This document shows, piece by piece, positions 15,342 through 63,828 of a stretch of DNA of 64,000 nt (the stretch's first letter is position 1; each line of letters begins with the position of its first letter). Below the pieces are notes generated by a model. That model made no database searches. It had not been told where the DNA came from and worked only from the letters and a program-made list of their open reading frames with translations. Location: the NCBI GenBank assembly GCA_036172245.1, contig JAYWIR010000016.1, forward strand, positions 1,550,001 to 1,614,000. Reading direction: 5' to 3'. This DNA comes from Raillietiella orientalis. Its lineage: Eukaryota. A program made the position numbers and the translations under genes.

Positions 15342-16795
15342 GACCTCCGTCATAGCCGTAGCCTTCACGGAAGACCCCTGCCAGCGATGAGAGCACGTTC
15401 ATACAATTATTCGATGTCTCCAAAATCTCATATCCTCTCTCCAGTTTGAAAAAAAAAAAAAAAAAATACAGGAAGAAGAAGAAGAAGAAAAAGAAAATGT
15501 CGCTCTCTTGTTTTCCTCACCGTTAAACACGGGGAAGCTTCGCGCAAAGCCACGACACTAACACGAGGCAGGCGCTGTGCCCCCAGGCGGCAGGGCAAGG
15601 GACAGCGCGTGCACCTGTTGCGGGAGCACATGCGTGCCAATGTCTCATGCTACTGCTGCTGATGATAATGATGACGACGATGATGATGCAGACCGCAGCC
15701 CTGATTTCTGCGGAAAGAGACCCTCACGCCTCTGCAACGGTGCAAAGGTCAAACCACTGTCACTCTTCGCACCTGCGCAAGCGTAGCAGTGGCACGACCT
15801 TCCCGACCGCAAACAGCAGCAGCAGCACCCGCGCTCTGCGAAGCGACAGCTGCCTTTCTTCCTCCCTTCCGTCTTCCCTCCGCAGTCGTCTGGGGCAGAC
15901 GATGCCGATCCGGAGCGGCCCGGGAACGCTCCGTGCCGGGCAGCCCAACGTACCCGGCCGCGCGTGCGGACGCGCAGAGAACCTCGTGGTGCGTCTGGTC
16001 GGATCCCGCGTGCCCTCCCCTCGCACGCCGCGCCGAGCAGCACGGCAACCGTTTTTCGATAGTCCCTGGGGCGCGAGAGCAGCTACCGGAAGCCGCCCTC
16101 TCTGGCGTCTCCGGCGAACGGGAAGCTGCGCCTCCGTCCTCCGGAGAGTCAGGGCTCCTGTCCGCCCGCTGCTCTTGCCAGACGGTCGCGCGGGCTTCCT
16201 GCGGGAGACCGGTCGTAGCAGCTCCACACGCTCGCAGAGGGCTGTGCGCCCGCAGGAAGAGCGGACGGCACCTCGCTCGCGGGTGCTCGACCCGGGGTCC
16301 CTAGTTCGAAGAGGCACGCGGAAACGCGGACTTCGGCCGGGAGAGCGTGGCAGCAGGCAGGTGCGTCGTCGCATCGCTCCCGAGCAGGACGAGGGGAGCC
16401 AGCGGCAAAGGAGTCACGGAGACCGCTCCAGCCTTTCCGCGGAGCTTTCCCGCGACGGCGGAGACCCCGCGCGGCTTGCACTGCGGACTGGTAGCCTCCC
16501 GCTCGCTCGCCCCCTGCCGGAAGCAGGAGTCCGGCGCTGCGGACTGAGGCCGGGCTCGCGCTGCGTGAGCTTCGGCCCCCCTCCGTGGGGTCAGGGTGTC
16601 TCCCTCGGGTGCGATGCAGACGATGCGAGATGCAGGAGGCGCCGCAGCTTCGATGGCTCCGCGAGCGATCCTTAGCTGCGGAAGCTGTCTGCGTGGAGTC
16701 GCTGTGGGCTCCCTGGCAGCCGTGTGACTTCACCGGAGGCGCGCGGCGCGGTCGTGTTCCCGGTGCCGGCGTCTCGCGTCGCAAGGCGCGCGTGC
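15342..16795 (+). repeat. Left arm of 1.45 kb inverted repeat
   Basis: Reverse complement of 54504-55956. The same ORF translations appear on opposite strands (342 aa at 15647+ and 55652-). Only three differences noticed: A-run 18 vs 17, and substitutions at 16140 and 16784. Contains an A-tract, (GAA)n and (GAT/GAC)n. Confidence 0.97.
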
Positions 16796-17429
16796 GAGGG
16801 GGTCGGCGGGCACAGGGATGGCTGAACCGCAGGTCTGCTCGCTCGGGGTCGGAATTTTCCCCTGCTGTCAGGGATTGACCACGAGGTGCTGGAGCTTGCC
16901 CGTGAGACGTCTCACGGCATGAGGGCATCTTGCTGGTTGCGAACCCACACGACTGGTGAGGGGCACTCTGGAGTGCATCCCGTGGACGGAAAGGTCCACG
17001 AGTAGCTGCGTTCGGTTTCCGCAGATGGGATTTCTTTTGGGGTGAGCCGAGGTCTCTCAGGTGCCCAGCGGCGAGAAACAGCTTGGAACAGAACACGAAC
17101 TTGGGTCACTAGCGGAGACAGCTGCTGTCTTAGCGCTGTTCCAGTGGCTTCGGAGACTGTAAGGAGGAGAGCCGAGTCCAAGGGGAAAGGTTAGGGAAGA
17201 TCCTTGCAGGTCCACCGCTTTCGTCTCTGCGCTGCCAAGGTCACTCTTCACGGTGCCCCTGGTTCAAAGACTTGCTGAGAGAAGCGGTGGAAGCGGATGC
17301 GTGGGTGGTTGGGAGGAAACCGGTGGCCTCCGTCCCGCTTTCTCGTTTGTAGCAGCTAGAAAAGAGCGCAAAACATCAGCGAAAGGAGGAGCTTTCCCCA
17401 CAGCCCATAATGTGATCAAAGGATGTAAT

Positions 17430-17710
17430 GCTGCAGGAGTTCTGCCATTGCGTTCGGTTTGCCTTCACAGCCAGCCCTCAGGAGAAGCACAACCAGAACC
17501 GGAAGCTTCTCGGTTCATCACGGTGTGATGGCCCCCTAAGTCCACCTATCCACTTGCCCCGGCCACAACAGAAGGTCATCCGCAACCTCACCGTTTGCCC
17601 AGTGAGGCGGAATCCTGAAGATTTCAAGGTCATCAGGTGGCTCTCGTTTTGCCCTTCCTCGTGCCGCAGGTCAAACCCGTGCAGTGCTCCAACCAACCTG
17701 ATCTTTCCTT
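17430..17710 (-). mobile_element. Decayed Tx1-like ORF1 relic
   Basis: GLTCGTR, MTLK...GQTV and LCFS*G motifs spread over several frames. Confidence 0.3.
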
Positions 17711-18696
17711 CCTCCAGTAGGAAGGAAAGATCTGCGATGCCACAGGGATTCCAAAAACGAGGATGCGAAGAACGGGAGCTCGGATGGGGGAGAGAAGGCG
17801 GGGAGAGGGAAGAGGAGGGGCAGATTCTCGGCGGATCATCCGCGGATCCTGTCGGTCGGCGCACCGAGCCCTCCAGCTTCCGGGATTCGTGGGCTCTTCT
17901 CTTCGGATGGGGGCGGAGACGGAGCTCTCAGCTAAAGATTCTCGATCGCGCAGCGACTGAAAGATGAAAGACGCTGACGTGAACAAATGGGCAAATAAGG
18001 GAGGAAAAATGGGGTCCTGGGGCGGAAAATCCTGAACGTTTCCAAGGTTTCTTCGCGTTTTCGAAAGATCCCTCACCTTCCTTAATAGGGTAGTACACGC
18101 AGCCTCCAGCAGCAAGCCGAGAAAGATTATTGACTGCAGGTGATCTGCAAAAATTAAATGGAGAACTTCATACGTCATCAGGGTGATGTTTGCTTAGGGG
18201 GACGCTGCCCTTCCGCCAAGGGATCTTTTCCTTTTCATTCAGCTCGCGGTTCCTTTCCCTCCTTCCCAATCCCTTCCCTCCTTTCTCCTCCCCTCCCTCC
18301 TCCGAGGTCCCACGAGGCAATTTTCCGTGGACGGTGGTCATCACTTGAAGCTGGTGGACGAGCTCATGCGAGTAAGTGGATCATACCAATTTTGATCCGC
18401 AGGATTTCTGCATCCTGGGGTCTCGGAAAAGTCCTGGGAGGCTGTGGACCGAGCACGGAGCGGAGGTTTTGGTGTTGTCTGAGAAGAAGGTTTTAGGGAT
18501 GTGGTGGTGATGGAGGAAGAGGGAGGAAGAGCGCTCCAAGCTGCCGTGGCGTCCGGCCGGAGAGGGGGCGACGGTGGCCGGTTGCCTGGCAGCGGCGGGT
18601 GGGGGGGGGAGGGAGGGAAGAGGAAGGGGACAGGGTAGGGGGAGGCCGGCGGGCACGCTCCCCTCACTCCGCCACGCCGTGGGGCGCGAGCAGGAG

Positions 18697-18925
18697 GTAA
18701 ACAAAAAGCCCCGTCGCCATCACGTAATTTGATGCCATCCGATGGCGTTCGCGACGGGCCCAGGGGGACTCGCACCAGGAAATTGCCCGATAATGAATAC
18801 CGCGTTTCGAGAACTTTCAGAGCCCCATTGTTTGTTTACGGCGGGCTAATAGCCTGCCGACCTGGGAACACTCCCGCACGTCTCGGAGATGACGTCGAGA
18901 TCATGTAATGGCTGTTATTCCCGCC
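18697..18925. promoter_or_regulatory. Candidate enhancer-like motif cluster
   Basis: Forkhead-type GTAAACA (18697) and TGTTTAC (18833), several TAAT cores and TGACGTC (18890) in a less repetitive island. Confidence 0.25.
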
Positions 18926-19404
18926 GGAAGATCGCTGGTCACCTTCCCACGCGGGGCGGGTCATCAGAAGAAGATCGCTGGTCACTCAGGAGTTCCCTGA
19001 GACGCCTGAATGAGGCCGGACTTCTTAAAGAGAGGAGAGAGCCTGTCCAGGGGGTTGGATCTCGCAGAAGGGCGTGGGGGACTTGCAAGCACCGGAGTCC
19101 CCGTGGCGTGAGGCGTTCGCCCGTGGGATGTGAGGACGCGCGAAGACGGGCGGCTGGTTGGCGGCGACCCGCAGGCAGGGACGGCAGGGTACCGGAAGGT
19201 CGGAGGGCGGGCTCCATCGCTGTCAGGAGAACTCGTTGTGGGCGGGTGGGTGGTGGAAATCCGCTGCTTTTCGGCCGGGATGCTGGCAGGGTACGTCACG
19301 GGACGGCTCCTCCCGTTCTGGGGATAGCACGGGAGTTGAGTTCCGTCTGGAAATCGGATCCAGGGCAGAGGCTCCTTTTTTTTTTTTACAAGATGAAGCT
19401 TCGA

Positions 19405-19555
19405 GGTCGAGAGGGAACGCCGGAGGGAACAACACAGTTCTTCCGGGCAAAGAAAGCGGGTTTCAGAGGATCCTTTCAGAGGATCTTCCAGGATCCACCT
19501 ACTAGCCATCTCGGTCGATTCAGTCCCGCCCTTTCAGTGGGGTCTGCATCCGGAA
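19405..19555 (-). mobile_element. Possible very degenerate SINE copy
   Basis: GAGGGAACGCCGGAGGGAAC and CCATCTCGGTCGAT resemble body and head segments of the other copies, in the same order. Confidence 0.3.
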
Positions 19556-22500
19556 CAACTCTTCTCAAAGCAGATGGTGGCCTCCAGGGAACCGGAGGTC
19601 CGTCAACTCCTCCTCTGATCCCTGGTTCATTTCTAAGGGTTCCCCTTTCTGTGTAGAGGGTGGGACGGGGGATGGAACCTCAACAATTCTGAGATGCGAT
19701 CCTCTTCCCTTCCTGATGGAGAACGATCCTTCCACCCTTTTCTCTCTTTTGGGAAATCCCGAGCGCGCCCACAGGGATTTTGATTACAGGGTATTCCTGG
19801 ACTCCCCCGCTTTCGAGATTCCGGAAAGCGTTAAGCGGTCCAGAAAGGGCCTTCTGGAGAACGGAGAGGAAGAGCAGAAAAGGAGGCAAAGAACCCAGAA
19901 TTCCTCCCTCCTTCTCCTTCCTGTTTCCCTTCCTTCAACGTCCCCTCAAATCGACTGCGTCTTCCAGGGAAAGAGCGGATGATTCCCTAGGAACGGGAAA
20001 GCAGAAGGAACCAGCAGCGCCTTCCGGAAGACAACAGACGGAGTGGAGGAGGAGATTGGGCAAAAGATCAGTCAAGAGAGCTCGTCTTGAGATGGACGTT
20101 GCCATGGATGTTGTGGGCAAAGAAATGGGAAAAAGGGGTTTCCTGGAGGATGTTCCGCAAACGCCATTCTCCATTTCCTCACCTTCCTCTTCTCCTTCTT
20201 GGAGATCCTTCCGGGTGCTCTCCATACCCAAATGGAGAAGAGACACGACCCTTCCCAACAGCTGCAGGTGATCAAGCGAGGCCGGTGGGCGTTCCCCTTC
20301 ATGGATCAAGGGAACGGGAGAAGGTCCCCTGTCCTTCCTCGTCCAATGGATTGCTCCTCGAAGTGAGCGTGGAGAGTCCAGACCATGGGTTTTCCGGAAC
20401 CGATATCCTGAGTTTTGGGCACTCTACCACCTGGCACATTCTCGTAATTCCTTGCCTATCCCCTTTCCTATCCCGTTTCCTGCGCAGGTGCTGTCAGTGG
20501 CAGAGTCGCTTGCGACCCAATGCTTCCCGTCCTTCCTTAAGTCGGCTTCCGCCTTCGCGACCGGACGCGCTCCTGAGGCCAGTCCAGCGCAGGAGAAAGC
20601 GGCAACCTGTGCGCCTGCATCCCATCTCGAAGCACCCTTGGTCTTCTCGAGGAAAGCAAGGCGAAGGAAAAAGCGTCCTAAGGGATCCCTTGGAATTCCT
20701 CGTGACCAGGCACTGCGACGGAGGGCGGCGCGACTTTCGCCTCAGGGATGCCGCGAGGGTTCCCTTTGCACATCTGCGCTCTGCACCCCAGAGGTACCAC
20801 CCATGTGCAAGCGCGGTGTTCCCCAGCTCCATGGCGGGATGCCCTTTTACGCGTGGGGCTCTCGCCCCTCGCCCGCCGCGTGGGCGCACCGCGGTTTCCC
20901 GCAGGCGACTGTGCCGGCTGCGACGGCGTGGTGTCCGCCGCGCCGCGAGCCGTCGCAGCCTGTACGGAGTGCCCACCGGAAGGGGCGGCGGGCTGGAGGA
21001 CCCGGATGTTTGCGTGCCTTCTGCCGCCACCGGCTCTGCCCCCTCCCTCTGTCTCCCCTGCTCCGGGTCTCCCTCAGGACGCAGTGAGGCCACGCGCGCT
21101 GCTTCCCGGCGGCGTCCGCGCCTCTCGCGCGAGGCGCTTCCGCCAGGAGGGAAGGTCGGGCGCGTGCGGCAGAGCGGGGAGTGCCCTGAACGACGTCGCC
21201 GACTGCACGCCCCGGCAGATCTCTTTTGTTCGCCCCGGGAACCCAAGGCGGACTTCGCCGTGACCTTGAAATTTGAATGCCTTTCGTTCCGCCAAAGAAC
21301 GAATCCGTCCGCCCCGGAACGCAGCACCAAACGTGGCCGCCGGCAGTACATGCTGGACACAGCCGTACTATGGCAATGCCGCCTCGGAGTCGGCGCGTTC
21401 AAAGCCACCCGCGGTCGGCAGCAGCGCCAGGTTCCTTTCGGCGGCACACCGCCTTCCCCTCCCTCACTCTTCCCTCCTGCGGCGCGCGCTCATTTCGGGA
21501 TGACTTTCAGGAAACGCCGGCGCTTCCCCGTCCTCCTCCAGCTCGCGGAGCCACCGCCCGCTCTCCCGTCTCTGTCCCGGGGCCCGCCGCCCTGTAAAGA
21601 CTAGGGCTTCCGACTTCTCCAGGAGGCCTCGCCTGCTCTTCAGGCGCCGCTGCGCCAGAAGGTCGGGAGGGAGGGCTGCGGAGGAAGGTGGAGAGGGGGA
21701 GAAGGGATGGGAAGAGACGTTCCTTCGTCCGCTGCTGAACAGGACCGGACGTGTCTCACCGAAAAGTAAGGACCGAAAGCGAACGATTCTCTGGCTCTCG
21801 GTGAGGCGGCGGCCCGACGCCAGCAGGGCGTGGAGAGGGATAACGCGCGTGTGCGCCGTACCGGCGTCTTCTCGCCTGTCGTCTCCCTCGGTTCGTTCAT
21901 CCCGGCGTTCCTCCAGGGGGACGGGAACTCTCCGTTCCGGAAAGAGCGCGCTAAGAGCGAAAGAGATCGTTGCGAGGGGAGTGGGAAGGAGGGAGGGGAA
22001 GGAGACGCTCCACGATCTGATTCGCAACGACCCGGAGGAAGAAGGAAGAGGACGGGAGTTAGAGGAACCACTCATCCGCCAGGGAGAAAGCGACTGCGAA
22101 TGGGAGGGGGTGGTGGGGGAGGACAGGGAAGAAGAGTTCGCTCCTCTTCTGCCCCGCCAGGTGCGCCCTGACCATCCCCTTTTCCAGAACCGCAATGCCT
22201 CTTCCCCTTCGCGTATCCCTTCTCCCACTTCTATGCAGAAGCCGTCGCACTTTTCCAGCAGAGGAAACCGGGAGAGGAGAGGCGGTACTGGGGAGCACCA
22301 CCCCTCTGTCATAGGCTGTGATCACTCCCTTCGTCTCCCCTGTTCCGGGACTTCCTCAGGGCATCCGCTGCTGAGGAGGCTGTCGCCAATTACCAGAGGA
22401 GGCAGTGTCACCCCTCAACACGTGCTCAACAGTAGGCGCACCACCACCACCTCTGGTAGAGGTAGTAGGCAGCCAGCCGTCCCCATTGCTTCCAGCACCA

Positions 22501-25500
22501 CCGCTGACCGACAGCAGCGGCAACAACAACGGAAAAGACGCGATCTCGGAGAAGAGGTTTGTGCCATCCTGATGGCGCTCGACTCCTCCATCGAGTGACC
22601 ACGCTTCCTCTGCATCCGGCTCTCTGGAGGAGGGATCCAAGGAACCTCCTTTCCTCATCTCCCCTTCTCTCCTCCCACGCAGTCCAGGCTCCGTCTCCGG
22701 AGTGCGCATTCTCGAGGAAAAAGCGATCCCCTGCCTTGAGGGTGGTGCACGCCGATGCTCAGCTGGGTCAATGGCTCTCCTCCTTCTCCCCTCCTCCTTT
22801 CCCTTCTTACCTCCCGTTCGAAGCTCGTTCAACCCACTGGCGCCTCCTCTGTGGTATCGTGCTCCTCTGCAGCCACCAGGAAGTCCGTGACGCAGGGGTA
22901 AGGCAAGGAGATCCAAATGCGGACCTTCATGAAACTCAGACTCCTGGAAAGCACTTAGAGACTCATGTCGCATCGGGCTGCAGACAGGTTCGCCCCGATA
23001 GGGAACCCCTAACGGGTCGGCAACAGGTTGAGGTCCTGTTCTCTTGGGAACCGAAGCAAAAGGATGGGAGTGAAATGGGGTGGAGGGAAGAACCCTGAAA
23101 GGGGGTGGGACGCGTTTTGAAGGCACCGAAAATGGGAAGCCCGAGTGGGAAGCTTTCCGCCATGTCCGGAGCGCACTTGGACAGGTCAGTAGCCCCTGCA
23201 GATGTGAGTTCGGGTGCTGGTGACCAAGTCCCCTTGGTTACGGAACTGCATTTTTGCTTTCCTCGCACACAGGAAGACGGATCAGGGGACTGATTTTGAG
23301 GGTGGATCGGAGAGACGGAGGGGTCTGCCTCAGGTGCCTACTGCTGGGATGCAGGGCTCCTCAAAGGAGGATCGACTCCGATGAGCAGCTTCGCAGCTCA
23401 CCAGGAGGGCGAATAACCACCGGCCATCTTTCTGCTGCTACGAGTGAAGGGGTATCAACTGACCGAGAGGAAGGAAGGCAAACAAGAAAGAGAGAAAGAG
23501 GCCTTTTGGTTCCTTCCTGCGTAGGGTCGCCTAAGACACAGGAAGTTTTTCTCTGGGGGCACAGGAGGGGGTCGCCCTGTCCTCGTGCTCCGAGCGCATC
23601 TGGAGCTCTCAGCCGGGCGCCATACTTGTTTACTCGGAGGTCATTGATCCGGGGACTCAACTCGTCTTCCTTTCGGAGAGTGGGAACGAGCTGCTCCTCG
23701 TCCCAGTTCGATTTGGGTCAGAGGCAGAGGAACGGAGGGAAAAAAAACGGAACAATGGAAGTGAATGGCAGACCGGAAACGTCAAAGAAGGCGACGGAGG
23801 GAATCTCCTTGCCACCAGAGGGCTCCGGAAGGGAGAAATCTTTCGACAGGATCATTCCCAATTTGGCGCTCGTCTGTCGCGATGGGACAAATGGCCTGAA
23901 GGGGGGGGGGAAGGGGGGCTCAGCACCTGCGTCTCTTCTTGCTCCCTCCCCACCTGATGCGTTCCATTTCAGACCTTCCGGTGAGTGGACGGGGAAGAGA
24001 CCTCCCGGGGAAGAATCTCAAGGTCACTGCTGTGGCACGTGCGAGTGCGAAAACTTCGCGTGCCACGTGCAGTTCTAGAGCTGGTGCGCCTGGCAGCACC
24101 GTGGTTTCCAGTCCTGAACCACCACCACATAGTTCGTGGCTGAAGGCCATCTCCAGCTTCCGAGTCAGCGTGCCGTGGAAGTTGCAGGCCACTGTGCAGG
24201 TCGACGTCTCCGCATAGGTGGCAGTCCAGGCAGCCCGTGCAGTGTGGTCTCAGGGTCATTCGAGTAGTAGGCAGTATGCGCCTGCTTCCGGGAAATTTTT
24301 CGCGAGCGGAGCGGGGAGGGACACCCCTCCTGGGTTCTCAGCCGCCCGGAATCTACTGGATGAGGGCGCGAGATGGCGCTCGCAGTGACGACGGGCGGCA
24401 GACTAACGGCGTTACCAAAATAACGCGCCGTCTTCCCTCGGGATGCGGGGAGCTCTCCCTGTCAACAAGTAGCGTGTGTCGGATTACCAGGGGGCACCGC
24501 TGCAGCCGGGTCCCGGGCTGGTGCATGTCTCCCGGGAGACTTCCGTCGCTGCGCTCCGCTTGGTTTCTCCGACCCGTAGGGTTCCGTGGCTGCCCACCCC
24601 GAAGTTCCGAGCCCTCCTGGAGCCCGTCCGACGGCGGGGAGACGGGCGCCTCGCGATCGCAGACTCAGCAGCAGCAGCAGCAGCGGGAAGTGCGCGTCTG
24701 CTCTCGCGCTGCATCTTTACCGAAAAACGGGGCGGGACGCGAGCGACGCCCCTCTTCCTCGAGCAGGATGACCACACCTCGATCCTAACAGACCCTGTGG
24801 AGAGGGCGGGAGCGTGGGAGTTGAGGGCCAACGAGCCCAGGAGGGAAGGGACGGAATCGAGGGGTCATCTGGGAAAGGAACGTCGTCGCGAGGAGGCAGC
24901 GTCCTTGATGGATCCCGCCTGGGGCTGGGGGAGACAGCTCGAGACGGGTGGGCGACTCAAGCGGCGGGGAATAGCGCCTACCTTCCCGGCGTTGCCCTCT
25001 CCCTCACCCCCTGAGAATTAGTCCAGAGGGGTCCCGAGGAAGAAGCCAGAGAAGTCAGTCCCATCCTGCTCCCCCCGCTTACCCCCTCCATCCTTTACCC
25101 CTCTCCAGGAGAGCGTGGAGAAGACTGGCTGGGCTTCCTCCCGTCCTCCAAGCGGGGAGGGACTTCTCCTGAGACAGGTTTGCTCAGGAAGAGGAGGAAA
25201 CGTCTGCATCCGGGGTCGGCTGCGGTGACCGAGGGCGGGTGAGTCGGGGGTAGAGCGCGGGATGACGATGGGGTCGGGGGAGAGTCGATAGTCCTTTGAG
25301 CAGTCCCGTGAGCGAGGCTATGCTCCCCAACGGGGAGACCGAGGGACTCGCTCGCCCCCTCTCCCCTCCTACACCCCTCTCCCCCTTCTGGTCCTCCTCA
25401 GACCCCGCGAAGGCAGAGGAGGACGCTCTCCAGGATGGCCCTGTTCCTCGCGCGCATAGGCCGCGCAAGCGCAGAGCCAACCGACGTGTAAAGCGCCCGG

Positions 25501-27755: not shown

Positions 27756-27764
27756 TATAAGGAG
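27756..27764 (+). promoter_or_regulatory. TATA box of the alpha-tubulin promoter
   Basis: TATAAGGAG about 165 nt upstream of the ATG, in CpG-rich sequence preceded by GA/CT-rich tracts (about 27450-27710). Confidence 0.65.
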
Positions 27765-27922
27765 GGTCTCCGCCGCTGCGCGCAGGAAGTCCGAGTGCCG
27801 CATCCCGCGCGGTCGCACCGTCCGCCCGCCCACCCGCTCGTGCGCTCTCCCGTGGCTTCCAGCAGCGCCTCCGCCGCCGCCAACGCAGCAGCCGCCGTCG
27901 CTCCCGGGAGCACACACCGATT

Positions 27923-41652
<13,730 letters not shown>

Positions 41653-41793: not shown

Positions 41794-41799
41794 AATAAA
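41794..41799 (+). terminator. Polyadenylation signal of alpha-tubulin
   Basis: AATAAA 142 nt downstream of the TGA stop, in an AT-rich 3' UTR-like stretch. Confidence 0.6.
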
Positions 41800-42370
41800 A
41801 AGTCTGAAAAAAAAAAAAAAAGAGAGAGACTAAAAAGTGATTGTGATCATCTCGTGCGCCTTTCCAGAAAATGCAAGAATTCATCTTTCCTTCTTCCCCC
41901 TTTCCGCCTGCTGTATGGTGCGGACATCTCGCGTTGGTTTTCGCTACCACCTGGCTGAGGTTTGAAAGCCTCGTCCGAGTGGCAGGTTCGATTTTCTCCA
42001 CCCCTCAACCGTAGTGGCTGAAGTTTCCTAGCTGGAGCTCGCCTTCGACCGCACGAAGTGTGGAACCAGGCAGCAGCCGCTGGAACTCGGGATCGTCCAC
42101 GGCGTGCCTTCCGCTTGGCTGCTGCTGCTCCCTTCACTTCCTGCCACGCAGCTTTTTGCCTCTGGTCACCCTCTAGAAGCACACTGTAGGCTGTTGAGCC
42201 CGTTCTCAGCTGAGGGATGCCGGCAAAGCTTTGAGGGAGCGGGAAGAAGAACGTACCATGGAGCTTTGCAGTCTTTCATTCACGTTCCGTTGATCGCATC
42301 CATGTGGAGAGGGATGCCAGTGCCGAGGACTGGAGCATGTGGCCCATTCCCTCTTCTCAGATTGTCGTGA

Positions 42371-42645
42371 TCGTTTTCACAGCCGGAGGGGAATCCTGAA
42401 GGGAACCGACTCCTTGATTCCTGGAAGGATCACGGAGGCTCAACCTCCAATCCCGGCCAGTCGACGGAGGCATCCGGTTTCCGGCTGCTTCCACCAGTTC
42501 CTCATCCAAATAGGCCAACCAGAGTCATCCTGCGGAGAGGACTCGAAACCCAAGACGTACCCACTTCTCGGCGTCGATCCTTCCCCAGGCGGGATTCGAA
42601 CTCGCAACGGCTAGTGCCACGGCAAGGCCACAGGGCCGCCGACGC
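42371..42645 (-). mobile_element. tRNA-derived SINE (head and body)
   Basis: Minus strand reads GCGTCGGCGGCCCTGTGG...GAGTTCGAATCCC...ATCGACGCCGAGAA...GCAGGATGACTCTGGTTGG...CCTTCCAGGAATCAAGGA. Confidence 0.8.
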
Positions 42646-45600: not shown

Positions 45601-45989
45601 AACTAATAGGGGAAAAATATCCCCTCAAAGAAAAAAGAAGTTCATCCGGGATAACCACTGGCACGCAAGCCGGCTTCCAAAAAGTAGGAAATGGAGGGAG
45701 AGGACGATAAATAAATAAAAAAAAAAAGACGAGAGGGCGGGGATAGGGGTCTCTGGTTTCATTCTCTCCTTTCTTTCCAGGAGCGGCTGCGTATGGTGAC
45801 GATCTCCCTGGCGACTTCTGGCAGATGAGGCCACCTTGCTGCTGTCTTCATGAGGGCCGCTGCCATGCTGGTGGCCTCTCTTCGCCGCGAACTTGATTCT
45901 AACACATGACGAGCTGTTGCTATGGCGCGGATGCAATCGACTGTTGCGGTCACAGGGGCTTCTTCAGTCCGCGTTCTGTGAAGAAGCGT

Positions 45990-46300
45990 CGCAGCAAGTC
46001 CTCAGCGGGATCCTGCGGTTGTCGGAGCTCCGGAGCGAGTCTCCGCCACAAGTCCTCCAGGGCACCGCAGTCCAACAGGAGGTGCGGGAGCGATTCCATC
46101 GCCTCGCACTCGGAACAGTTTCGAGGAGGCAACTCCCCCGGAAACCAGATGTCTGCGCTGATGGCACTGGAATCCCCAGTGCAGGAACAGCTTCCACCGT
46201 GGCAGGAACACGGAGGCGTCCACACAAAGGGGAGGGACCAGGAGTTCTTCGGACACCGCGACGCCAATCCGTCGCTCCCAAGGAATGTTCTGGCGGACAG
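45990..46300 (-). mobile_element. L1/Tx1-like LINE relic, zf-RVT domain (frameshifted)
   Basis: FLPRWKLFLHWG in one frame, then NCSECEAMESLPHLLLDCGALEDLW in another. Confidence 0.65.
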
Positions 46301-46494
46301 GCGCTCTCGGCATCCCTTTGAATAAAGTAGCGATCCCCGCCATTTTCCTCAACGGTTTAGCACTTCTCTCCCCTTACTCGAGTGGAACTGAACGTTTGAA
46401 GTTTTGTGGATGCCGAGGGCGATGCGATGCTGCAGCCTGGACCGGGTCTGAGTCCACGCTTCGTACGAAACAGAGTAAGTCGGCGTAACTCTTG

Positions 46495-47043
46495 GTAGGG
46501 AACACCGAATTTCTTCCTTATTTTCTACGGAGGGGTTCCCTGGAAGGGACCACTCCCCATTTCTTCTTCTATGGGAACCCGGAATATATCTGCCCCTTGT
46601 TTGCTCCTCTGAAAGGAGCTCTGAAGGGACCAAATTTCTCCGAAGAACGCTCCTCGAAGGGAGAAGCGAAGCTTCCTACAGTATGGAGAGGCAATCCCCC
46701 TCTGGAGGCCATCATCCAGCTCTATGGTACATGATGGACGCGCTCCATTTGCACAATCAGAGGGGAACCCCGGAGGGAACCGACTGGAAGAACTCTGGAG
46801 CCATTTTTAACTTTCAACCCTGACCAGTCAATGGAGGCATTCGGCTTCCGGATGCTTCCACCAGTGCTGAGCCTACAGGTCAAGTTTTCAACTAGCAATA
46901 ATACAGGTCAACCAGCATCATTCTGCGGATGGCACTTGAAACCCAAGACGTACCTATTTCTCGGCGTCAATCTCTACGTGGAGATACGAACCCTCAACGT
47001 TTGGCACCACATGCGGAGATCTCAGCCACACGGCCGCCAACGC
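46495..47043 (-). mobile_element. tRNA-derived SINE, near full-length diverged copy
   Basis: Minus strand reads GCGTTGGCGGCCGTGTGG...GGGTTCGTATC...TTGACGCCGAGAAATAGGTACGTCTTGGGTTTC, then the shared body and tail. Confidence 0.75.
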
Positions 47044-48199
47044 GTGATCTCGCTTCCCAGGCTCATCACCAAGTTGGAGGCCACCCGCCCCATTTGCGCA
47101 GCTCCCAGTCTGAAAGGCTGTTCGACCCCTGCGTTCGAAACTGCGATCGGACTCCGGTTGCTCCGTCGTTGTCTGGGAAGGATTAGTCCGGGACGAGCAT
47201 TCGAGAACGGGAGGGGAGGAAGAAGGGTGTGTGCTCTTTGGTGAGACGGGTACTTCCCGTCGGGCAAGCTCGACCCCGTGGTTTGGGACCTCTGCCTCTC
47301 GGCTCTGAGAGATTCTTCACTGTGGAGTCAAGCTCGCTCTCCCGAGCTGTGACGATGCTCAGGTTTAAAAGTTGGCCAAAAACGGAAGGGCCATCCCTTC
47401 AGAGAAGGAGCAAGCCCTCCTCTCATGGCCGCACACCCAACGGGAGGACCCTTCCGTTTTCGTTCGGAATCGAAGATTAGGTGCAGACCTCCTGCACCTG
47501 AAAGATCAGCGGAGGATTCTCATCCGGTCACACCGGGAGGCGTCGTTTATTTACAGAAGAGAGTGGAACGTTACGGCTCAACGAGTCCAATGATTCTTGA
47601 AGGAGAGAGAGGGGGGAGGGAAGGTTGCCGGTGCCCACAACGGGAGGGGAGGGGAATGGCGAAAGAGAAAAAAAAAAAAGTAAACATAAAGCAAAAAGAT
47701 CGTCTGCGGAATTATGAGGGGGAGCAGGGGAGGGATCACATTCTGTGCCGTCGGTTTCCTCCGCATCCTGTGCAGGATGTCAGGATCCGAGCTGCTCCTC
47801 AGGCCGTCCTAGGTGGGTCCATCTCGAGGCGATCCGCAGAACCCGGACTGCGAAGGGAATGGCGCTCCTGTGGTTGCGGTCTCTCCCACCCTCTCACCTT
47901 GCCTGAAGCAACGCCACCCTGACATCAGAGAGCTGACTGAGCCTGACAGCAGACTGAGACAGCTGACGACGAAGGCGAGCTTCGCAGCATCGCTGAGGTT
48001 GTCCACCGGGCTGGGAGTGTCGTGGGGAAATGTTCTCAGAATGCTCACAGGGCAACAGTGTGCACCAGGCGCAGTTCGGCGCGACGCTTCCCCTCGTCCA
48101 GTGCTGTCGCCCTACAGCTGCAGTTCAGGATGACGGCCTCCATGGCCGAGAACTGGATGTGGCTCTGTGCGCGAAATCCCGAGGCATACTGTCTGCTGG

Positions 48200-48730
48200 T
48201 TGCGGAGAAACGGCAATTTTGCTACCGAGACCACACAAGGCTCTCGGGTCCCCACTGAGGAGGGTCGCCGTTCTGTGGGAAAAGCAATATGCGGATCTCC
48301 TGCCTCCTGGCAAACCACAAAAGGAGGTGGTGGACACCTAGATCCCCAGCACGAGGACGGACGCCGCCCATGATGCTTCCCATCCACACCTTCAGTCTCT
48401 GCTGGAGGCAGCCGAGGGGGACGGAAAGAAGAGGACCCGAGACACTGCCACCCCTCATCTGCAAAGCTCTCCTCCCTACGGCAGAGAAACTACAATTGTC
48501 GACTGGCAGGGCGGGCGATGTCGCAGCAGGAGAGACGAAACTGGTGAGCCTGTGGAGGGCGGGCCAGAGGTGGCCTTGAGGCGGAGACGCCCAGTGCCCA
48601 CGTGAAAGGGCTTCTCGGTTCGGCGGAATGCTGGGGGAGTTGGTGACACCTCCCTTCTGCCTGAGCAGCTTCGTGCACACCCCCTCAGGCGGCAGTACGA
48701 GGAGGCTTCGCCGTTCGCTCACCAAGGCTT
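48200..48730 (-). mobile_element. Possible decayed Gypsy-type integrase relic
   Basis: LLVLPP...KLL...HLWPALHRLTSFVS (with CCD in an adjacent frame), then GPLLSVPLG...IMG; order resembles the HHCC domain followed by the start of rve. Confidence 0.35.
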
Positions 48731-48961
48731 CCCGCGCAACTGCCGTCTTGGCAGGTTGGTTTCGAGGCTTCCTCGGAGGAAAGCGCGGTGACTTTTGATG
48801 ACGAAAATCCTTTTGGGTTCTTCTCTGCCTTTCCAGCTTTTGGGGGGGGGGGGTGCCAGATACCTCAAGAACCGTTGCGCGCCTGGTGGCCTACGCAGCT
48901 CTTTGACGCTGTCCACTCCACTCGAGGGGGAGTGTACTTCTAGATAGTATCCCGGGACGGA

Positions 48962-49190
48962 ATAGCACCCTATGAATCCAGGAAGGGTTCCATAGAATGG
49001 GGTCCGTTCCTTTCAAGCCTGAGGAGGGATCCCAAAGGGAACCACCACCTTGTCTGTCTCCGAAGTAACCCTAAAGGGAATCTCCTTTCTTGTTCTCTCC
49101 GGAGGGCCTTCTGGAGTGATCCGCTCCATTTTTTCTACTTGGAGGGAACCCTCAAAAGATCCGCTATTATGAATTTCTTCTACGGAGGGA
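48962..49190 (-). mobile_element. 3' tail fragment of the SINE family
   Basis: CACCCTATGAATCCAGGAAGGG...GTCCGTTCCT is shared with about 63564-63610; TCCGCTCCATTTTT is shared with the 5.6k copy. Confidence 0.65.
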
Positions 49191-50659
49191 AAGTTTGCTG
49201 CTGCTCCCCTTCACCCACTACTTTTAGTTTGCCCCTTCCCTCCCGAGGTGAAAAAGCGGCTGGAGGATCTCCTGTGCATTGCCCTATGGGGCAACGGGAG
49301 GCCCCAAGTCCTGCTGTCCGACTTGTGCGCTCTGCGTCGGGACGGCGGTCTCAGCCTCCTGATGTTGGAGCGCATGGAAATCTATGTCGGCGAATCTTAG
49401 CCATCGCAGCGAAGTCAGGAGCACCCCATGATGCGTTCTGGCACGTTTCTCTCCAGCTGTGAGGCCGGGACGGAAGGACTCGCATCTTTCTTCTCGTGCT
49501 CGTGACCCAAGGTGCAAAGATGAGGTCTTCTCCTGGTCGCATGGTCACTCTGTCGAAGGAGAACGACTGGATGGTCTTCTGCCCCACCAACTCTAGTGCA
49601 TGGCTAGAGGAAACAGTTGGCTCTTGGGTGAAGCTGAACGAAATGCAAAATGAGAGGTGGAACTGCCTACGACTTGGCAACCACGCCCGCTGCTCGCTCC
49701 GGAAGGTCCTGGAATGTCCTGCTAGGAGCATGTGAGCGAAGACGAGCCCCCTTGCTGCAACGCTGCCCTTTCTAAGAAGGGCACCAAGCAGTAGCCAAAG
49801 GCCATGGTGGGAAGTCGCCTGCGAGATTGCAGGCAGGAAGCAGTGGATGAGTGGTTGGATCATGGAACAGCTGGCAGATGCAGCGACCATGAGTGTCCCT
49901 CCATCCCTCCACATAGTACTGGGGCAAGCTGTTCAGCATTCCATCAGAAGACCTGGAGTGGCCCTCAGTGCTGAAGGACACGATCCCCCTGAAATGGCAG
50001 GAGTCGGTGCTTCTGCTGTTGCCCTGGAACGCGTGCCGACACCACTAGACGCTGGGGAGGGCGAATCCGAACTGTCGCAGGTGGGTGGAACGGGAATTCT
50101 TCCCTCACCTGCTAGTGGACTGCGCTGTCCTCCGGCTCCTATGGGAACGTTTTGCAACGAACCTCTGGATCCCGGTTGGCAGCCTCCCCAGGGGCTTTTT
50201 ACGGCTCCTCTTCGAGTGGCCCGCTCTGCAGCCAGCCGCCACCTAGCTGCAGCAGTTTGCTGCATCTGCAGGATCGTGGCGGCATGGAGAGAAGCCGACA
50301 GGGGATGGGATGGGAGGGACGCCGTCCGGTTTGCAGTTCGCTTCCTGCAGATGGCGGCCGGATGCCCCCATCTAGGGATTATTCGGAAGGACCTTGCTGG
50401 AATCCCGAAACGGATGTAGACACCGTCCAGCGGGCGGTGAACCCTTCCGGCACCTTCCAAGTGTTTCTATTGATTTCTATTTATTCTTTTTTTTTCCTTT
50501 TTTTGTTTTTCCCCATTCCTCTCCGCTGCCGAGGCGAGCCCACCGGTCTGCATACCAGCGACCCGGCAGATCCATTGCTGAGTTGGCCGTAGGGGGGCTT
50601 CGGACCACGGAAGTTGTAAGTTTATTGAAATCAATAGACGCCCCGGCGTGACCGGATGA

Positions 50660-51128
50660 CAACTCCGGAGGGAACCCGCGAGGGAACCGCTGCTGTTTAC
50701 TCTTCTGAAGGAAGCCCAAAAAGGACGCTTCCTTTTTTCTCTGAGGGACGTTCCCCGTAGGGAGCGGCACGCTTCTCTGTACTCTGGAGAAGTAACAACA
50801 CACCTACTCCATGGTACGAGACGGAGGGTCCCCCTCGAAGGAAGGGTCCGCTCCTTTGCACGAGCGGAGGGAAACTCCGACTCCTCGATTCCTGGCAGAA
50901 TCCGGAGGGTCGACTCTCAATCTCCGCCGGTCATCGGAGGCATCCAGTTTGAACCGCCACCGGCGCCGCACCAGAATGCAGGCCAACCAGCGTCATCTTG
51001 GCAGGAGGAACTCGAACCCACGACGCACCCCCCATCTCGGCGTCGATCCTTCCCGGGGTGGGATTCGAACCCTTGGTGACGCTTGGCTGTGCCACGCGTA
51101 GAGAACGCAGCCACGTGGCCACCGACGC
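50660..51128 (-). mobile_element. tRNA-derived SINE
   Basis: Minus strand reads GCGTCGGTGGCCACGTGG (A-box)...GGGTTCGAATCCC (B-box)...ATCGACGCCGAGATGGG..., then the body and part of the tail. Confidence 0.8.
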
Positions 51129-53699
51129 CATCTCTGCTGGGGCGTATTTGCTGATCGCAGTAATGCAGGCGTGGATCGTGACAAAACGCGCCACCGACAG
51201 CCACTACGACGGTGGCTTTTTCCACGAGAACGAGAGAGCGGTTCGACAGCAAAAGCTTCTGATCCCTACCATTCTCTTTTCAGATTCCCTCGCTCCCGAC
51301 AGATGCTTCTTCGCAGAAACAGAACCTCTCTGCTGTGATGACATGGAGGAACCCCTCAGAGCAGCGGGATTGGGAATCCTATTCCAAAGCAAGCAAGATT
51401 TTCAATCCTGCTGCTCTCCATTGTGCTGCGATGGCGCGGGAAGATTCCCGGATCAGTTGCAACTCCTGGACGGCGTGAGTGGACCACCCGTTCTGGACGG
51501 GAATCGCGTAGAAGACGGGAGGGAGGGGGCTCAGTCAGCATCGTGAAAGCTCGGAGGTGTTGGTCCGGTAGAGAATGGACCGGAAACCGCGGACACGGTG
51601 TCCTTCCCATACTCCAGTCGCTTTCGATCTTGCGTGAGAAAGGTAGTAAAGTGTCGACTCACGACGACTATTTCTTGCACCCAGCTCAAACGTGTAGATC
51701 TGCTGCTGCGACATCGGTCCAGCCTTTGTGGGACCACCGGCTTGTTCCCAGTGACCGGAACGCTCCAAGAAACAGCGTGAGAGGCGAACCGGCTTTCCTT
51801 CACTGGGACGGATGCGGGATTCTCAATCCTTGGTAGCTCCTTTCACTTCCGTGCAGTGTTGCCACATCAGTCTGAGGACCGGGTTCGAGTTTCTTCAGGA
51901 GCGGCTGCGGAGACCGATTGCCGAGACGATTTCCGGACAGAAGACACCGGTCGCTCCCACTTGCCAGCGTTGCAGTTTTGATTTGACTCGTTGCAAAGGG
52001 TCTGCAGCACTTTGTCCCCATTGTCCCCGAGCTGGAGAGGCAACGAGACGATCACCCTTGAAAGGAGTGGATCTCCCTTTATCGATTTCCTGTTTAGTTC
52101 GTCATCACAGCCTGTTTTCGAGAGGCCAGTCAGAGTCCGAGGATACAGAGCCGCCGAAAAGCAGGCAGTTTCGGCTCCAGATGCGGGAAGAAACTGCTCT
52201 CTCACTCAAGCCTCTCGGTTCGCGAACGACCGTCATCGGCTTCGTAACTTCCTACCGCGATTCCTGCATCCACTGCAGCCGCCGTCTCCTCGCCCTCGCG
52301 ACGAGGGGGAAACCTGGCAAAAACAGGTCGGAGTTCACGTCTCGAGGGGAGAGACTGATCGCTTTCCGGAGAACTTTCTCCCTCACCCGAGGTGCGATGG
52401 AACGCGCCCGTGTCCCGCGCACCTTTTTTTTTCTTGCCTCGGAAAGGGAAGAAGAAAGAAACGGCGTCATTTGTTCCGAGCTGCGGGTCGACACGAATGA
52501 CCAGACCGGGCACCTTTAGAACTCCCCAGGCTCGAACGGACGGACTTGCCCCACCGCAGCTGATCGCAGAGACTCCGCGACCCACTTCACGTGTCAGTGA
52601 GCGTGTCGGAATTCAAGGCCCCCTCTTCCTCTTTCCAGAGGGCGAAATACGAGATCGCCCCCATTTCAGATGTCTTCGGACCTACTGCGTTCTCTTCGAG
52701 CCGCGCCATTTGAAGTCACCGGACTCTGCTCATAATTTCCGAAGTTCCCGACGAAGGTGGGCGTTTCGCGCGCCCTTGTCCGCCCAGCTGGACTGACGAA
52801 AGCGGGAGCACTGGGGAGTAAAACGGGAAAGGAAAGCAAGGAAAGGGGAGAAAGTGAACTCCTGGTCATGCTGGGGTTGCAGAGCGGGGAGCAGCGAGAC
52901 GGTTGCCAGGCATCGGTCTCGGCGCAGCTTCCCGTTCACGGCGGGCGAGCGAGCGCTTCTTCGCCTGGCTGGTTTTTAGAGGTCGCTCTCCCCTGGACAC
53001 TCCCGCGACCATTCGCGAGTTCTAGATCGCCTCTCGACGACCTTCCGCGCGGAGGACTTCGGCGCTCAGCGAATTTCGATTTCCGTCGGAAATTCGGGAT
53101 CGCTCCCTCCGGAGGTGGTCAGGTGACTTCCCCCCTCAAAACTCGACCACGGTGCACAACCCTCCTCACGGCGGCGTGGCACGAGTAGAGGGAGTTCCTC
53201 GCTTTCGCTTCCCGCGTTTCAAGGAAAAATCTGCACCACGCAGCAAGATGCCTGCAGTCACTTTTGTATTGCCGTTTGCATGTCTCGTGATCGAAGAAGG
53301 TGGTGTTTCGGCAAGTCGCCAAGAGGCCATGCCTGGTCACCCTCAAGAGAAGAGAGGAGGATCCCGTCCTATGGGATCTCGTGGGAAGCTGAGGAGTTTC
53401 CTCTGGCTAATTTTTCACTTGAAGTACGCAAGAAGGTGCTTGCAGAAGCCATAAAAAATGGGAGGATTGACCCTCGGAATATCTGGAAGGAGAACCTAAC
53501 GGAGAACAAGGCAGCTGAAATCGCTCCTGAAGACTGCCTTCCTGTTGGATGAAAAAAGTCAGAAAATTGGAATCCGCTGCCGGAGGGAGGCAAAGGCGCT
53601 GAAGAGCCGAAGAAGACGAGCCATCCAAATTGTGAGATCACCTTATCAGCCACCTCCGTCAGACGATCGGTTCGTGCGATCCGCTGTATCCCAACCTTC

Positions 53700-54111
53700 G
53701 GAGAGATTCCGCGGTCCTTCTTCCAACAAACAAGCCGAAGAGCAGCCACCCGAAACAAACAAAGCGGAACGGTCTCCGTGACCCCTTCCCCTCTGCCATC
53801 CCAACAAGTAGCAGGCAGCGCCCCTACCGAGGGATGAGACAACCCAACGAAGACAACGACTCAAGGGACAACCCAACGAAGCCTTCCGGGATCACAAACG
53901 CTGCGACTGTCGAAGGGGCGCCTCTACATGACAAAAGGGTGATTGCAGCCCGTCGATGATCAGAGGATGCCCTCGACAGGAATAGATGCTGCTGAAAAAG
54001 AGCTTCAGAACGACTGTATCCATCTACCTCTGTAACTTCTCCCACTGTGGACACTTCTCCCAGCATCCGAAAAGCGTCGTCAGTGACCAGGATGCCCAAA
54101 CCAAGAGTCAA
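53700..54111 (-). mobile_element. Decayed Tx1-like ORF1 relic
   Basis: TLGLGILVTDDAFRMLGEVSTVGEVTEV, then GALPATCWDGRGEG resembling GQP.TC..CG.EGH. Confidence 0.4.
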
Positions 54112-54503
54112 GGAGGAAAGTAAAAGACATTTTCAGAGGAGCACCAACACGCCAGAGGATTTCCGCAGCATGCACGCCTAGCCTCTTCTCAAGATCCCTA
54201 GCAGATCATTGCGTCTCACGAGATCGACACGGAAGACGCGAAGTCCTTCGAAGATGGCATGCCAACTTCCCGATAATGACAGGAGACGTGTCCCACCAAT
54301 GCCCTTACCAGAAAAGGACATTTGTACGGTGTGTCTTCTGGAAGTCCCTCTGCCTGGCGCCCCTTCTCCCGGAACGACCGATTCGGAGAGAAGTCCAGGG
54401 AGGACAATGAAGGGTCACCTCGCGTTGCCCGAGCGATAGGAGGGTGCCAACCGCGGAGACGGACGTCCCTGCTGAATGCGCGCCTTCCACAAATCCGGAA
54501 GCG

Positions 54504-55956
54504 GCACGCGCGCCATGCGACGCGAGACGCCGGCACCGGGAACACGACCGCGCCGCGCGCCTCCGGTGAAGTCACACGGCTGCCAGGGAGCCCACAGCGA
54601 CTCCACGCAGACAGCTTCCGCAGCTAAGGATCGCTCGCGGAGCCATCGAAGCTGCGGCGCCTCCTGCATCTCGCATCGTCTGCATCGCACCCGAGGGAGA
54701 CACCCTGACCCCACGGAGGGGGGCCGAAGCTCACGCAGCGCGAGCCCGGCCTCAGTCCGCAGCGCCGGACTCCTGCTTCCGGCAGGGGGCGAGCGAGCGG
54801 GAGGCTACCAGTCCGCAGTGCAAGCCGCGCGGGGTCTCCGCCGTCGCGGGAAAGCTCCGCGGAAAGGCTGGAGCGGTCTCCGTGACTCCTTTGCCGCTGG
54901 CTCCCCTCGTCCTGCTCGGGAGCGATGCGACGACGCACCTGCCTGCTGCCACGCTCTCCCGGCCGAAGTCCGCGTTTCCGCGTGCCTCTTCGAACTAGGG
55001 ACCCCGGGTCGAGCACCCGCGAGCGAGGTGCCGTCCGCTCTTCCTGCGGGCGCACAGCCCTCTGCGAGCGTGTGGAGCTGCTACGACCGGTCTCCCGCAG
55101 GAAGCCCGCGCGACCGTCTGGCAAGAGCAGCGGGCGGACAGGAGCCCTGACTCTCCGGCGGACGGAGGCGCAGCTTCCCGTTCGCCGGAGACGCCAGAGA
55201 GGGCGGCTTCCGGTAGCTGCTCTCGCGCCCCAGGGACTATCGAAAAACGGTTGCCGTGCTGCTCGGCGCGGCGTGCGAGGGGAGGGCACGCGGGATCCGA
55301 CCAGACGCACCACGAGGTTCTCTGCGCGTCCGCACGCGCGGCCGGGTACGTTGGGCTGCCCGGCACGGAGCGTTCCCGGGCCGCTCCGGATCGGCATCGT
55401 CTGCCCCAGACGACTGCGGAGGGAAGACGGAAGGGAGGAAGAAAGGCAGCTGTCGCTTCGCAGAGCGCGGGTGCTGCTGCTGCTGTTTGCGGTCGGGAAG
55501 GTCGTGCCACTGCTACGCTTGCGCAGGTGCGAAGAGTGACAGTGGTTTGACCTTTGCACCGTTGCAGAGGCGTGAGGGTCTCTTTCCGCAGAAATCAGGG
55601 CTGCGGTCTGCATCATCATCGTCGTCATCATTATCATCAGCAGCAGTAGCATGAGACATTGGCACGCATGTGCTCCCGCAACAGGTGCACGCGCTGTCCC
55701 TTGCCCTGCCGCCTGGGGGCACAGCGCCTGCCTCGTGTTAGTGTCGTGGCTTTGCGCGAAGCTTCCCCGTGTTTAACGGTGAGGAAAACAAGAGAGCGAC
55801 ATTTTCTTTTTCTTCTTCTTCTTCTTCCTGTATTTTTTTTTTTTTTTTTCAAACTGGAGAGAGGATATGAGATTTTGGAGACATCGAATAATTGTATGAA
55901 CGTGCTCTCATCGCTGGCAGGGGTCTTCCGTGAAGGCTACGGCTATGACGGAGGTC
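54504..55956 (-). repeat. Right arm of 1.45 kb inverted repeat
   Basis: Reverse complement of 15342-16795. Begins about 470 nt downstream of the flamingo stop codon. Confidence 0.97.
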
Positions 55957-63805: not shown

Positions 63806-63828
63806 GAATATTTCCTCAGGAAGGACTC

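Follow-up and report, generated by a model that had tools for sequence, protein, structure and literature searches.

Inversions that arose through staggered breaks in the Drosophila melanogaster group carry inverted duplications which, in the account of Ranz et al. (2007, PMC1885836), measure between 46 bp and about 1.9 kb; one-sided duplication is common (12 inversions). In humans, the inversions considered in a 2014 study (PMC3961182) span 5.1-226 kb and are flanked by repeats of 1.6-24 kb, and the repeats of FLNA-EMD/HsInv0389 are given as 11.3 kb (preprint 10.1101/2020.04.20.051185). On Saccharomyces chromosome XIV a flip/flop arrangement has been described, in which homogenised, near-identical inverted repeats of 4 kb border a 24 kb segment and cause it to re-invert repeatedly (Salzberg et al. 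2022, PMC9731477). Inverted copies may also be produced by replicative repair, as in the DUP-TRP/INV-DUP and template-switch (MMBIR) events treated by Beck et al. (2015, PMC4352052).

The locus analysed here, in which near-identical inverted repeats (the arms) bracket an alpha-tubulin gene of Raillietiella orientalis, resembles each of these systems in part. With the Drosophila cases, as they are described, it shares inverted copies at the ends of a segment, a size of these copies within the reported range and the apparent lack of an involved transposon. The duplicated sequence is reported as non-repetitive in Drosophila, a property that is seen here within the 64 kb of the window, namely the whole stretch of DNA analysed. 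Unlike the inversions of Ranz et al. 2007 (PMC1885836), however, the segment is only 37.7 kb long; moreover, the Drosophila inversions were established by means of outgroups, with a mean identity of 88% between their copies, while the present copies are 99.6% identical and are known from one sequence. As in the human cases, a segment of tens of kb that carries a gene is bordered by inverted repeats of high identity, here presumably low-copy, but the arm (1.46 kb) falls just below the human repeat range of 1.6-24 kb, and in humans both orientations were demonstrated, whereas one orientation, from a single assembly, is known here. The yeast flip/flop region is comparable for segment size and for the near identity of its inverted repeats; these are conserved across a genus and hold expressed genes, whereas the present arms show no gene. 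[quoted passage not shown]

The pair had been identified in a preliminary description made from the sequence, which placed near-identical inverted repeats around 37.7 kb containing the tubulin gene, and this arrangement was confirmed by a repeat finder, by self-blastn and by global alignment (table 1). A self-comparison, which the same description had suggested as a check, recovered the pair as a single HSP (54504-55966 versus 16795-15332) with 99.59% identity over 1464 columns, by far the strongest among the window's 16 non-self pairs, the runner-up being 179 nt long and 95.5% identical. The repeat finder returned two inverted matches, one of 1346 nt shown as 100% identical (15450-16795/54504-55849) and one of 134 nt at 98% (15332-15465/55833-55966), which belong to one repeat, divided by a 1-nt difference in poly-A length. 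From the positions of the differences, the longest perfect block shared by the arms is 690 nt (15450-16139). A 35-mer taken from the arm has two occurrences in the window and was found in none of 100 shuffles; it has no exact match in collections of metagenome, prokaryote-genome and viral contigs, none of which is aimed at animals. No third copy of the arm, even a diverged one, was detected by self-blastn within the 64 kb. At all four junctions the homology stops abruptly, both ends of the arm being sharp, and the 600-nt flanks beyond the arm ends gave local alignment scores of 10 and 12, to be compared with means of 11.4 and 11.6 in shuffles. Diverged homology past the arm ends, which would point to an old duplication whose core has been converted, was sought in these flanks and none was detected.

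Table 1. Positions of the repeat arms, of the differences between them and of the genes discussed, numbered from the first nucleotide of the window.
Feature	Position	Strand	Details
Left arm of inverted repeat	15332-16795	+	1464 nt
Right arm of inverted repeat	54504-55966	-	1463 nt; reverse complement of left arm, six differences
Outer 10 nt of repeat	15332-15341	+	partner 55957-55966; 7/10 identical between copies
Substitution	15334		C/G; global alignment
Substitution	15339		T/C; global alignment
Substitution	15341		T/C; global alignment
1-nt indel	in A run 15449-15466		poly-A length change; global alignment
Substitution	16140		T/G; global alignment
Substitution	16784		A/T; global alignment
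Bracketed segment	16796-54503		37,708 nt, the spacing between the two arms
Alpha-tubulin gene	28555-41652	+	at least 9 coding exons; stop 41650-41652; AATAAA 41794
Alpha-tubulin exons, first to fifth listed (about)	28555-28674, 28716-28859, 31693-31866, 31930-32058, 34401-34634	+	
Alpha-tubulin exons, sixth to ninth listed (about)	38190-38347, 38406-38546, 38593-38751, 41515-41649	+	
Flamingo/CELSR-type gene, 3' part	56426-64000	-	stop TAA 56428-56426; gene continues past the window

Global alignment of the arms revealed five substitutions and one 1-nt indel. The figure of about three differences, initially proposed for 15342-16795 versus 54504-55956, is exact for that interval. The differences are unevenly distributed: four of the five substitutions are no more than 12 nt away from the end of an arm, three of them in the outermost 10 nt and one at 12 nt from the inner end, whereas the 1442-nt interior contains one substitution and one homopolymer indel only, with none of its 165 CpG sites differing between the arms. 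Under a uniform spread, such a distribution would have a probability of about 3e-6 and 4e-7 in the two calculations made. The identity in the outer 10 nt has a chance probability of 0.005, and these nucleotides either form the actual boundary of the duplication or represent imperfect microhomology where a repair joint was made. Point changes near joints have been ascribed to low-fidelity replicative repair (Beck et al. 2015, PMC4352052), and mutations concentrated at the junctions would suit error-prone fill-in, replicative repair or imperfect microhomology at the joint.

The arms are GC-rich (65%) and appear to be non-coding as far as tested. The left arm has a GC content of 0.649 and a CpG observed/expected ratio of 1.09, to be compared with 58% GC and a ratio of 0.87, indicative of little CpG depletion, for the whole window. 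Its outer 117 nt have a higher AT content and precede the A18 run and (AAG)5, the remainder being 60-72% GC. The period-3 signal of the arm core (2.9) is above that of three controls (1.0-1.5) and below that of exons (3.6-8.2); the GC content of the core does not vary with codon position and there are trinucleotide runs, and the arm was therefore read as non-coding. No Pfam domain was found in any of the stop-to-stop ORFs of at least 70 aa in the arms, no Rfam family was found in them, and Tandem Repeats Finder detected no tandem array inside either one. A 382-aa ORF of the arm had no homologue among 8000 candidates scored, all of 210-669 aa, and a 109-aa ORF across the left outer junction had no match among 1.84 billion representatives.

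The explanation preferred here, with a confidence only slightly above even, is that of a genuine and locus-specific inverted duplication of approximately 1.46 kb of non-coding GC-rich DNA, generated by one event of either repair or replication. Both copies of the arm would thus exist in the organism, and the arm is presumably low-copy genome-wide. The final layout, L-x-M-x'-R, could be reached by two routes. In one, inversion of the 37.7 kb segment would involve a staggered break at one of the breakpoints, the filling-in of which would leave x at each end; in the other, template switching would copy x and paste it reversed 37.7 kb away, with no inversion. By either route the arms would now be of sufficient length and similarity for pairing with each other; a crossover would then turn the alpha-tubulin segment around, and a non-crossover event would preserve the identity of the arms. 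The layout fits that expected after a staggered-break inversion or for a segment that is invertible by arm-arm recombination, and arm length (1.46 kb) and identity are, by analogy, within the range that mediates inversion elsewhere. Recombination acting on the pair could now lead to inversion. We infer that an inversion has happened or can happen. If the repeat is real, the chances that the segment is inverted with respect to the ancestor may be set at about even, and it is rather unlikely that both orientations still exist; both are rough personal estimates and not computed values. As far as the nucleotides themselves are concerned, an inversion-associated duplication, a reverse-pasted copy with no inversion and a mis-oriented contig would be accommodated alike. 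Four ancestral or empty-site junctions were reconstructed and no repeat spans any of them; ORFs across the reconstructed junctions are uninformative in GC-rich DNA, and GC profiles do not discriminate which junctions are ancestral.

The mis-oriented contig is considered unlikely. According to this explanation the genome contains a single x, and two contigs overlapping by x were left unmerged with one of them reversed, creating two artificial joints. The L-x-M-x'-R layout exactly matches an unmerged 1.46 kb overlap combined with a flipped contig, the interior is almost perfect (one substitution in 1442 nt), and the differences are found where the consensus of contig ends is weakest, with three in the outermost 10 nt, another near the inner end and a further one within a homopolymer. 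The substitution at 16140, however, is far from any end, and overlap-based assemblers seldom make blunt joins that no reads support. Gaps usually mark the joins of scaffolds, whereas there are no Ns in the window; with the long tubulin and CELSR exons also intact, the assembly is therefore taken to be contiguous and of good base quality here. Also against an artefact, a second inverted duplication nearby (61709-61887 versus 63822-64000, 8 mismatches in 179 nt, 95.5%) is too diverged to have arisen from an overlap. It is older than the arm pair and, being present, demonstrates that local inverted copying does occur at the locus. Distinctly less probable still is that a young, non-autonomous mobile element inserted twice, independently and in opposite orientations, with the bracketing of the tubulin gene a coincidence. 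The two copies are near-identical and have the same two termini, like full-length copies of an active family; the remains of retroelements described below indicate that such elements were once active in the genome; and the search for copies spanned 64 kb, with which a moderately repeated element is compatible. Yet a target-site duplication, which should be intact at 99.6% identity, was absent at the left copy, and the only candidate at the right one, CTTC (4 nt, offset 2), does not exceed chance level. TIR- or LTR-like ends were not apparent, since five of six comparisons of arm ends scored within their shuffles and the sixth (direct, 150 nt), with 13 versus a shuffle maximum of 12, was read as chance among six tests. 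There is no 3'-terminal poly-A or simple repeat, the A18 run being internal at 117 nt from the outer end; neither coding capacity nor a homologue of the arm emerged from the searches described above, and there is no third copy or diverged relative in the 64 kb. Helitrons end in 5'-TC and 3'-CTRR; the arm termini show neither, which also led to the rejection of a Helitron. For the pair as a whole, two earlier statements were upheld, namely that no target-site duplication flanks it (whichever boundary was chosen, the two sides had no 4-15-mer in common) and that no intact transposase lies inside, the Pfam scan of the segment ORFs of at least 70 aa having returned tubulin domains only. A large TIR-bounded DNA transposon, either composite or Maverick/Polinton-like, was discarded by taking into account this lack of a target-site duplication outside the arms and of transposase, integrase, protein-primed polymerase or capsid genes between them in the Pfam scans. 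A foldback element was likewise rejected, the arms not being built of tandem sub-repeats according to Tandem Repeats Finder.

A sub-case of the preferred explanation, for which only a slim probability is allowed, is that of an inverted repeat of old date whose copies are continually matched by gene conversion, with recurrent flipping of the tubulin segment, after the manner of the 24 kb flip/flop region of yeast or of the FLNA-EMD inversion in humans. The near-perfect interior set against 70% identity in the outermost 10 nt, as if conversion rarely reached the edge, and the CpG sites of the interior, 0/165 of which differ, would agree with it. The similarity gradient that should accompany such a history is, however, missing, in that divergence is confined to 10 nt at one end, with no detectable similarity further out, and the other end has a single difference; furthermore, the arm contains no gene whose conservation would explain its long-term retention. 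Equally doubtful is a natural animal flip-flop in which conversion-matched arms would repeatedly invert the 37.7 kb tubulin block and both orientations would segregate in the population. If this were true, the orientation of alpha-tubulin would change relative to the 3' end of flamingo/CELSR and to flanking regulatory DNA.

Returning to the genuine inverted duplication, if both copies are real the locus belongs to a well-known class of candidate inversion sites, at which an inversion would locally suppress recombination in heterozygotes, the alpha-tubulin gene could be repositioned relative to its neighbours, and orientation would be easily genotyped with four primers. Inverted low-copy repeat pairs around gene-bearing segments are common in eukaryotes and no new mechanism is indicated here. 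The main practical value of the observation is as a flag for assembly curation, since a flipped contig gives the same picture.

The surroundings of the arms were characterized by Pfam scans that took in 523 of the 593 stop-to-stop ORFs of at least 70 aa, including all those in the arms and in the bracketed segment; the other 70 are Arg/Ala/Gly/Pro/Ser-rich ORFs of 70-109 aa, none of which is wholly inside the segment. Decayed interspersed repeats are present in the window, and a reverse-transcriptase zinc-finger fragment was recognized at 12567-12812. To the right of the pair, the preliminary description had set the right arm just downstream of the flamingo stop, and the distance was found to be 460 nt (TAA 56428-56426). 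None of the poly(A) signals downstream of this CELSR gene settles whether its 3' UTR enters the arm. Its product contains EGF, laminin G, laminin EGF, HRM and 7tm_2 domains and a C-terminal tail; along most of the fragment, identity to proteins of arthropods and vertebrates is 31-39%, in a search whose lengths left out full-length CELSRs, and the matches of the fragment in a protein atlas are generic EGF/laminin-G clusters only. Alpha-tubulin is the sole gene recognized in the bracketed segment, the rest of which has no Pfam domain and low codon-usage scores. Neither its promoter nor the exon carrying its ATG was located, the latter not being among those listed in table 1, and its introns comprise two short ones (58 and 46 nt) along with multi-kb ones. 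One of its exons is up to 95-97% identical to alpha-tubulins, the named matches, at 94-95%, coming from many animal phyla.

Repeat search, MAFFT alignment and self-blastn of the window all single out one outstanding repeat, a pair of inverted arms (see the table) that match each other with 99.59% identity over 1464 columns in self-blastn and are 37,708 nt apart. The runner-up among the 16 non-self blastn pairs is 179 nt long (95.5% identity), and the others, at 66–91% identity, are for the most part decayed interspersed repeats. Global alignment of the arms yields six differences, namely five substitutions and one change in poly-A length. The preliminary description had placed a near-identical pair at 15342–16795 and 54504–55956 with about three differences; exactly three are counted within these limits, which therefore confirms the observation. 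The pair is truly present in the given sequence and is a further instance of an ordinary, known type of structure. Homology between the arms ends sharply at either end: local alignment of the 600-nt flanks past the outer and inner ends gave scores of 10 and 12, respectively, on a par with the averages for shuffled sequence (11.4 and 11.6). The outermost 10 nt of the arms are identical at seven positions, a level of identity (at least 7/10) reached by 0.5% of comparisons between unrelated 10-mers of the window.

Location of the arms, their differences and other features of the window
Feature	Position	Strand	Details
Left arm	15332–16795	+	repeat search, MAFFT, self-blastn
Right arm	54504–55966	−	reverse complement of left arm; repeat search, MAFFT, self-blastn
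Arm difference	15334		C/G; global alignment
Arm difference	15339		T/C; global alignment
Arm difference	15341		T/C; global alignment
Arm difference	15449–15466		poly-A run, left arm longer by one A; global alignment
Arm difference	16140		T/G; global alignment
Arm difference	16784		A/T; global alignment
Open frame, left outer junction	15121–15447	−	109 aa, from left arm into outer flank
Open frame, right outer junction	55650–56399	+	250 aa, from right arm into outer flank
zf-RVT fragment	12567–12812		reverse-transcriptase zinc finger, one ORF; Pfam, E 4e-7
Alpha-tubulin gene	~28555–41652	+	stop 41650–41652, AATAAA 41794
Near-perfect palindrome	39313–39365		53 nt; self-blastn
tRNA-Pro call	52478–52561	−	84 nt; ARAGORN
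CELSR frame stop	56428–56426	−	TAA
Second inverted repeat	61709–61887; 63822–64000	inverted	blastn
Decayed repeat family 1	5609–5902; 48861–49158; 63472–63659		
Decayed repeat family 2	11927–12375; 42374–42619; 46748–46972; 50663–51072; 63692–63798		

The arms have a GC content of 65% and a CpG observed/expected ratio of 1.1. From the outer end, 117 AT-richer bases are followed by A18, (AAG)5 and approximately 1.3 kb of GC-rich sequence (60–72% GC) that includes short runs of GAT and CAG. We read the arm as non-coding: no Pfam domain is found in any arm ORF, a 382-aa open frame is without homologue among the candidates scored, and GC content by codon position is flat. The period-3 signal of 2.9, as opposed to 1.0–1.5 in three controls and 3.6–8.2 in exons, is modest and accounted for by the trinucleotide runs. 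With respect to the frames that leave the arms, the left one has no match among 1.84 billion representative proteins, and the right one, which is antisense to the 3′ region of the flamingo/CELSR-type gene, is without Pfam match. The 1-nt difference in poly-A/T length between the arms decides which outward frame stays open. Rfam gave no match at gathering scores anywhere in the window. An exact 35-mer of the arm had no match in metagenome, prokaryote-genome and viral contig collections, which are not animal-directed.

Of 593 stop-to-stop ORFs with a length of 70 aa or more, 523 were scanned against Pfam; the other 70 (70–109 aa, rich in Arg, Ala, Gly, Pro and Ser) include none lying wholly inside the bracketed segment. 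Sixteen scanned ORFs gave matches: seven with tubulin domains, every one between the arms, eight with EGF, laminin G, laminin EGF, HRM or 7tm_2 domains, all on the minus strand and right of the right arm, and the zf-RVT fragment. Coding sequence of the alpha-tubulin gene is split into nine or more exons, and of its introns two are short (58 and 46 nt) and several span multiple kb; its ATG exon was not found and lies upstream of 28555, since the first recognisable coding exon opens after a splice acceptor. A scan of codon usage, with the known exons of only two genes as training set, revealed nothing convincing as further coding sequence between the arms. The assignment of the minus-strand gene as CELSR rests on its domain set and on 31–39% identity with CELSR/stan fragments from arthropods and vertebrates, and its frame stops 460 nt beyond the outer end of the right arm, in keeping with the earlier remark that this arm sits just downstream of the flamingo stop. 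In the second inverted repeat, which continues past the window end, 179 nt or more are duplicated with eight mismatches in 179, and 1934 nt separate the copies; the left copy takes in a stretch of a CELSR EGF exon together with its upstream intron on the minus strand, and the other is an inverted duplicate inside the same gene.

With regard to the origin of the arms, we lean towards a real, locus-specific inverted duplication produced by one event as the most likely explanation. A staggered break at one inversion breakpoint would generate exactly the layout L-x-M-x′-R, where L and R are the outer flanks, x and x′ the arm and its inverted copy and M the bracketed segment; alternatively, a template switch pasting x reversed 37.7 kb away would give the same layout without inversion. 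A Drosophila study describes staggered-break duplications of up to about 1.9 kb, and 12 inversions with the sequence of only one breakpoint duplicated (PMC1885836). No indication of the ancestral junctions came from features spanning the reconstructed junctions, GC continuity across them or poly(A) signals downstream of CELSR. An apparent inverted pair would also result if two contigs overlapping by x had been left unmerged and one reversed, and both arm copies are known from this one assembly sequence; such an artefact is nevertheless unlikely, as the window contains no N and so no gap character, the substitution at 16140 is distant from any arm end, the exons are intact and the nearby second inverted duplication is too divergent for an overlap. 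Even less probable is that the pair is a mobile element: no target-site duplication was detected around the pair, as initially observed, or at the single arms, where nothing beyond a 4-nt CTTC at offset 2 came up; the arm has no tandem sub-repeats, terminal poly-A or coding capacity, and blastn found no third or diverged copy within 64 kb. Terminal inverted or direct repeats are also lacking, five of six end comparisons falling within their shuffles and the remaining one (direct, 150 nt) scoring 13, where the highest shuffle gave 12. A Maverick-like or composite element was rejected because Pfam revealed no transposase, integrase or polymerase between the arms, and the absence of an intact transposase noted previously holds.

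The differences between the arms are unevenly placed. Of the five substitutions, three crowd into the terminal 10 nt at the outer end and another is found 12 nt from the inner end, leaving one substitution and one homopolymer-length change for an interior of 1442 nt that contains 165 CpG sites. Under an even spread, the probabilities of these clusterings are about 3e-6 and 4e-7. The end-clustered changes may have arisen at the joints during the event, through error-prone fill-in, imperfect microhomology or replicative repair, itself described as error-prone in PMC4352052, or they may be consensus errors at contig ends, and the sequence would fit both. An old repeat with a core homogenised by gene conversion is disfavoured because no decaying similarity extends past the arm ends.

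By analogy, arms of such length and identity are plausible recombination substrates. Inverted repeats of 1.6–24 kb, a range slightly above the arm found here, mediate human inversions of 5.1–226 kb (PMC3961182); for the FLNA-EMD inversion the repeats measure 11.3 kb and share more than 99% identity (preprint 10.1101/2020.04.20.051185), and in yeast a segment of 24 kb is flipped between repeats of 4 kb (PMC9731477). The recent or still polymorphic inversion of the tubulin block proposed initially is a candidate reading, neither supported nor contradicted, and an effect of the arrangement on tubulin regulation is speculation.

As to the remainder of the window, only two genes are recognisable in 64 kb. 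Its composition (58% GC, little CpG depletion at an observed/expected ratio of 0.87), with a GC3 of 0.70 in known exons, is odd for animal DNA. The two decayed repeat families (66–81% identity, copies in both orientations) and the zf-RVT fragment are probably remnants of old non-LTR retroelements. The palindrome (90.6% self-complementary) is situated within a tubulin intron whose flanking exons end at 38751 and start at 41515. The tRNA-Pro call is unusual in its length and its GGG anticodon, and could therefore represent a pseudo-tRNA or tRNA-derived repeat.
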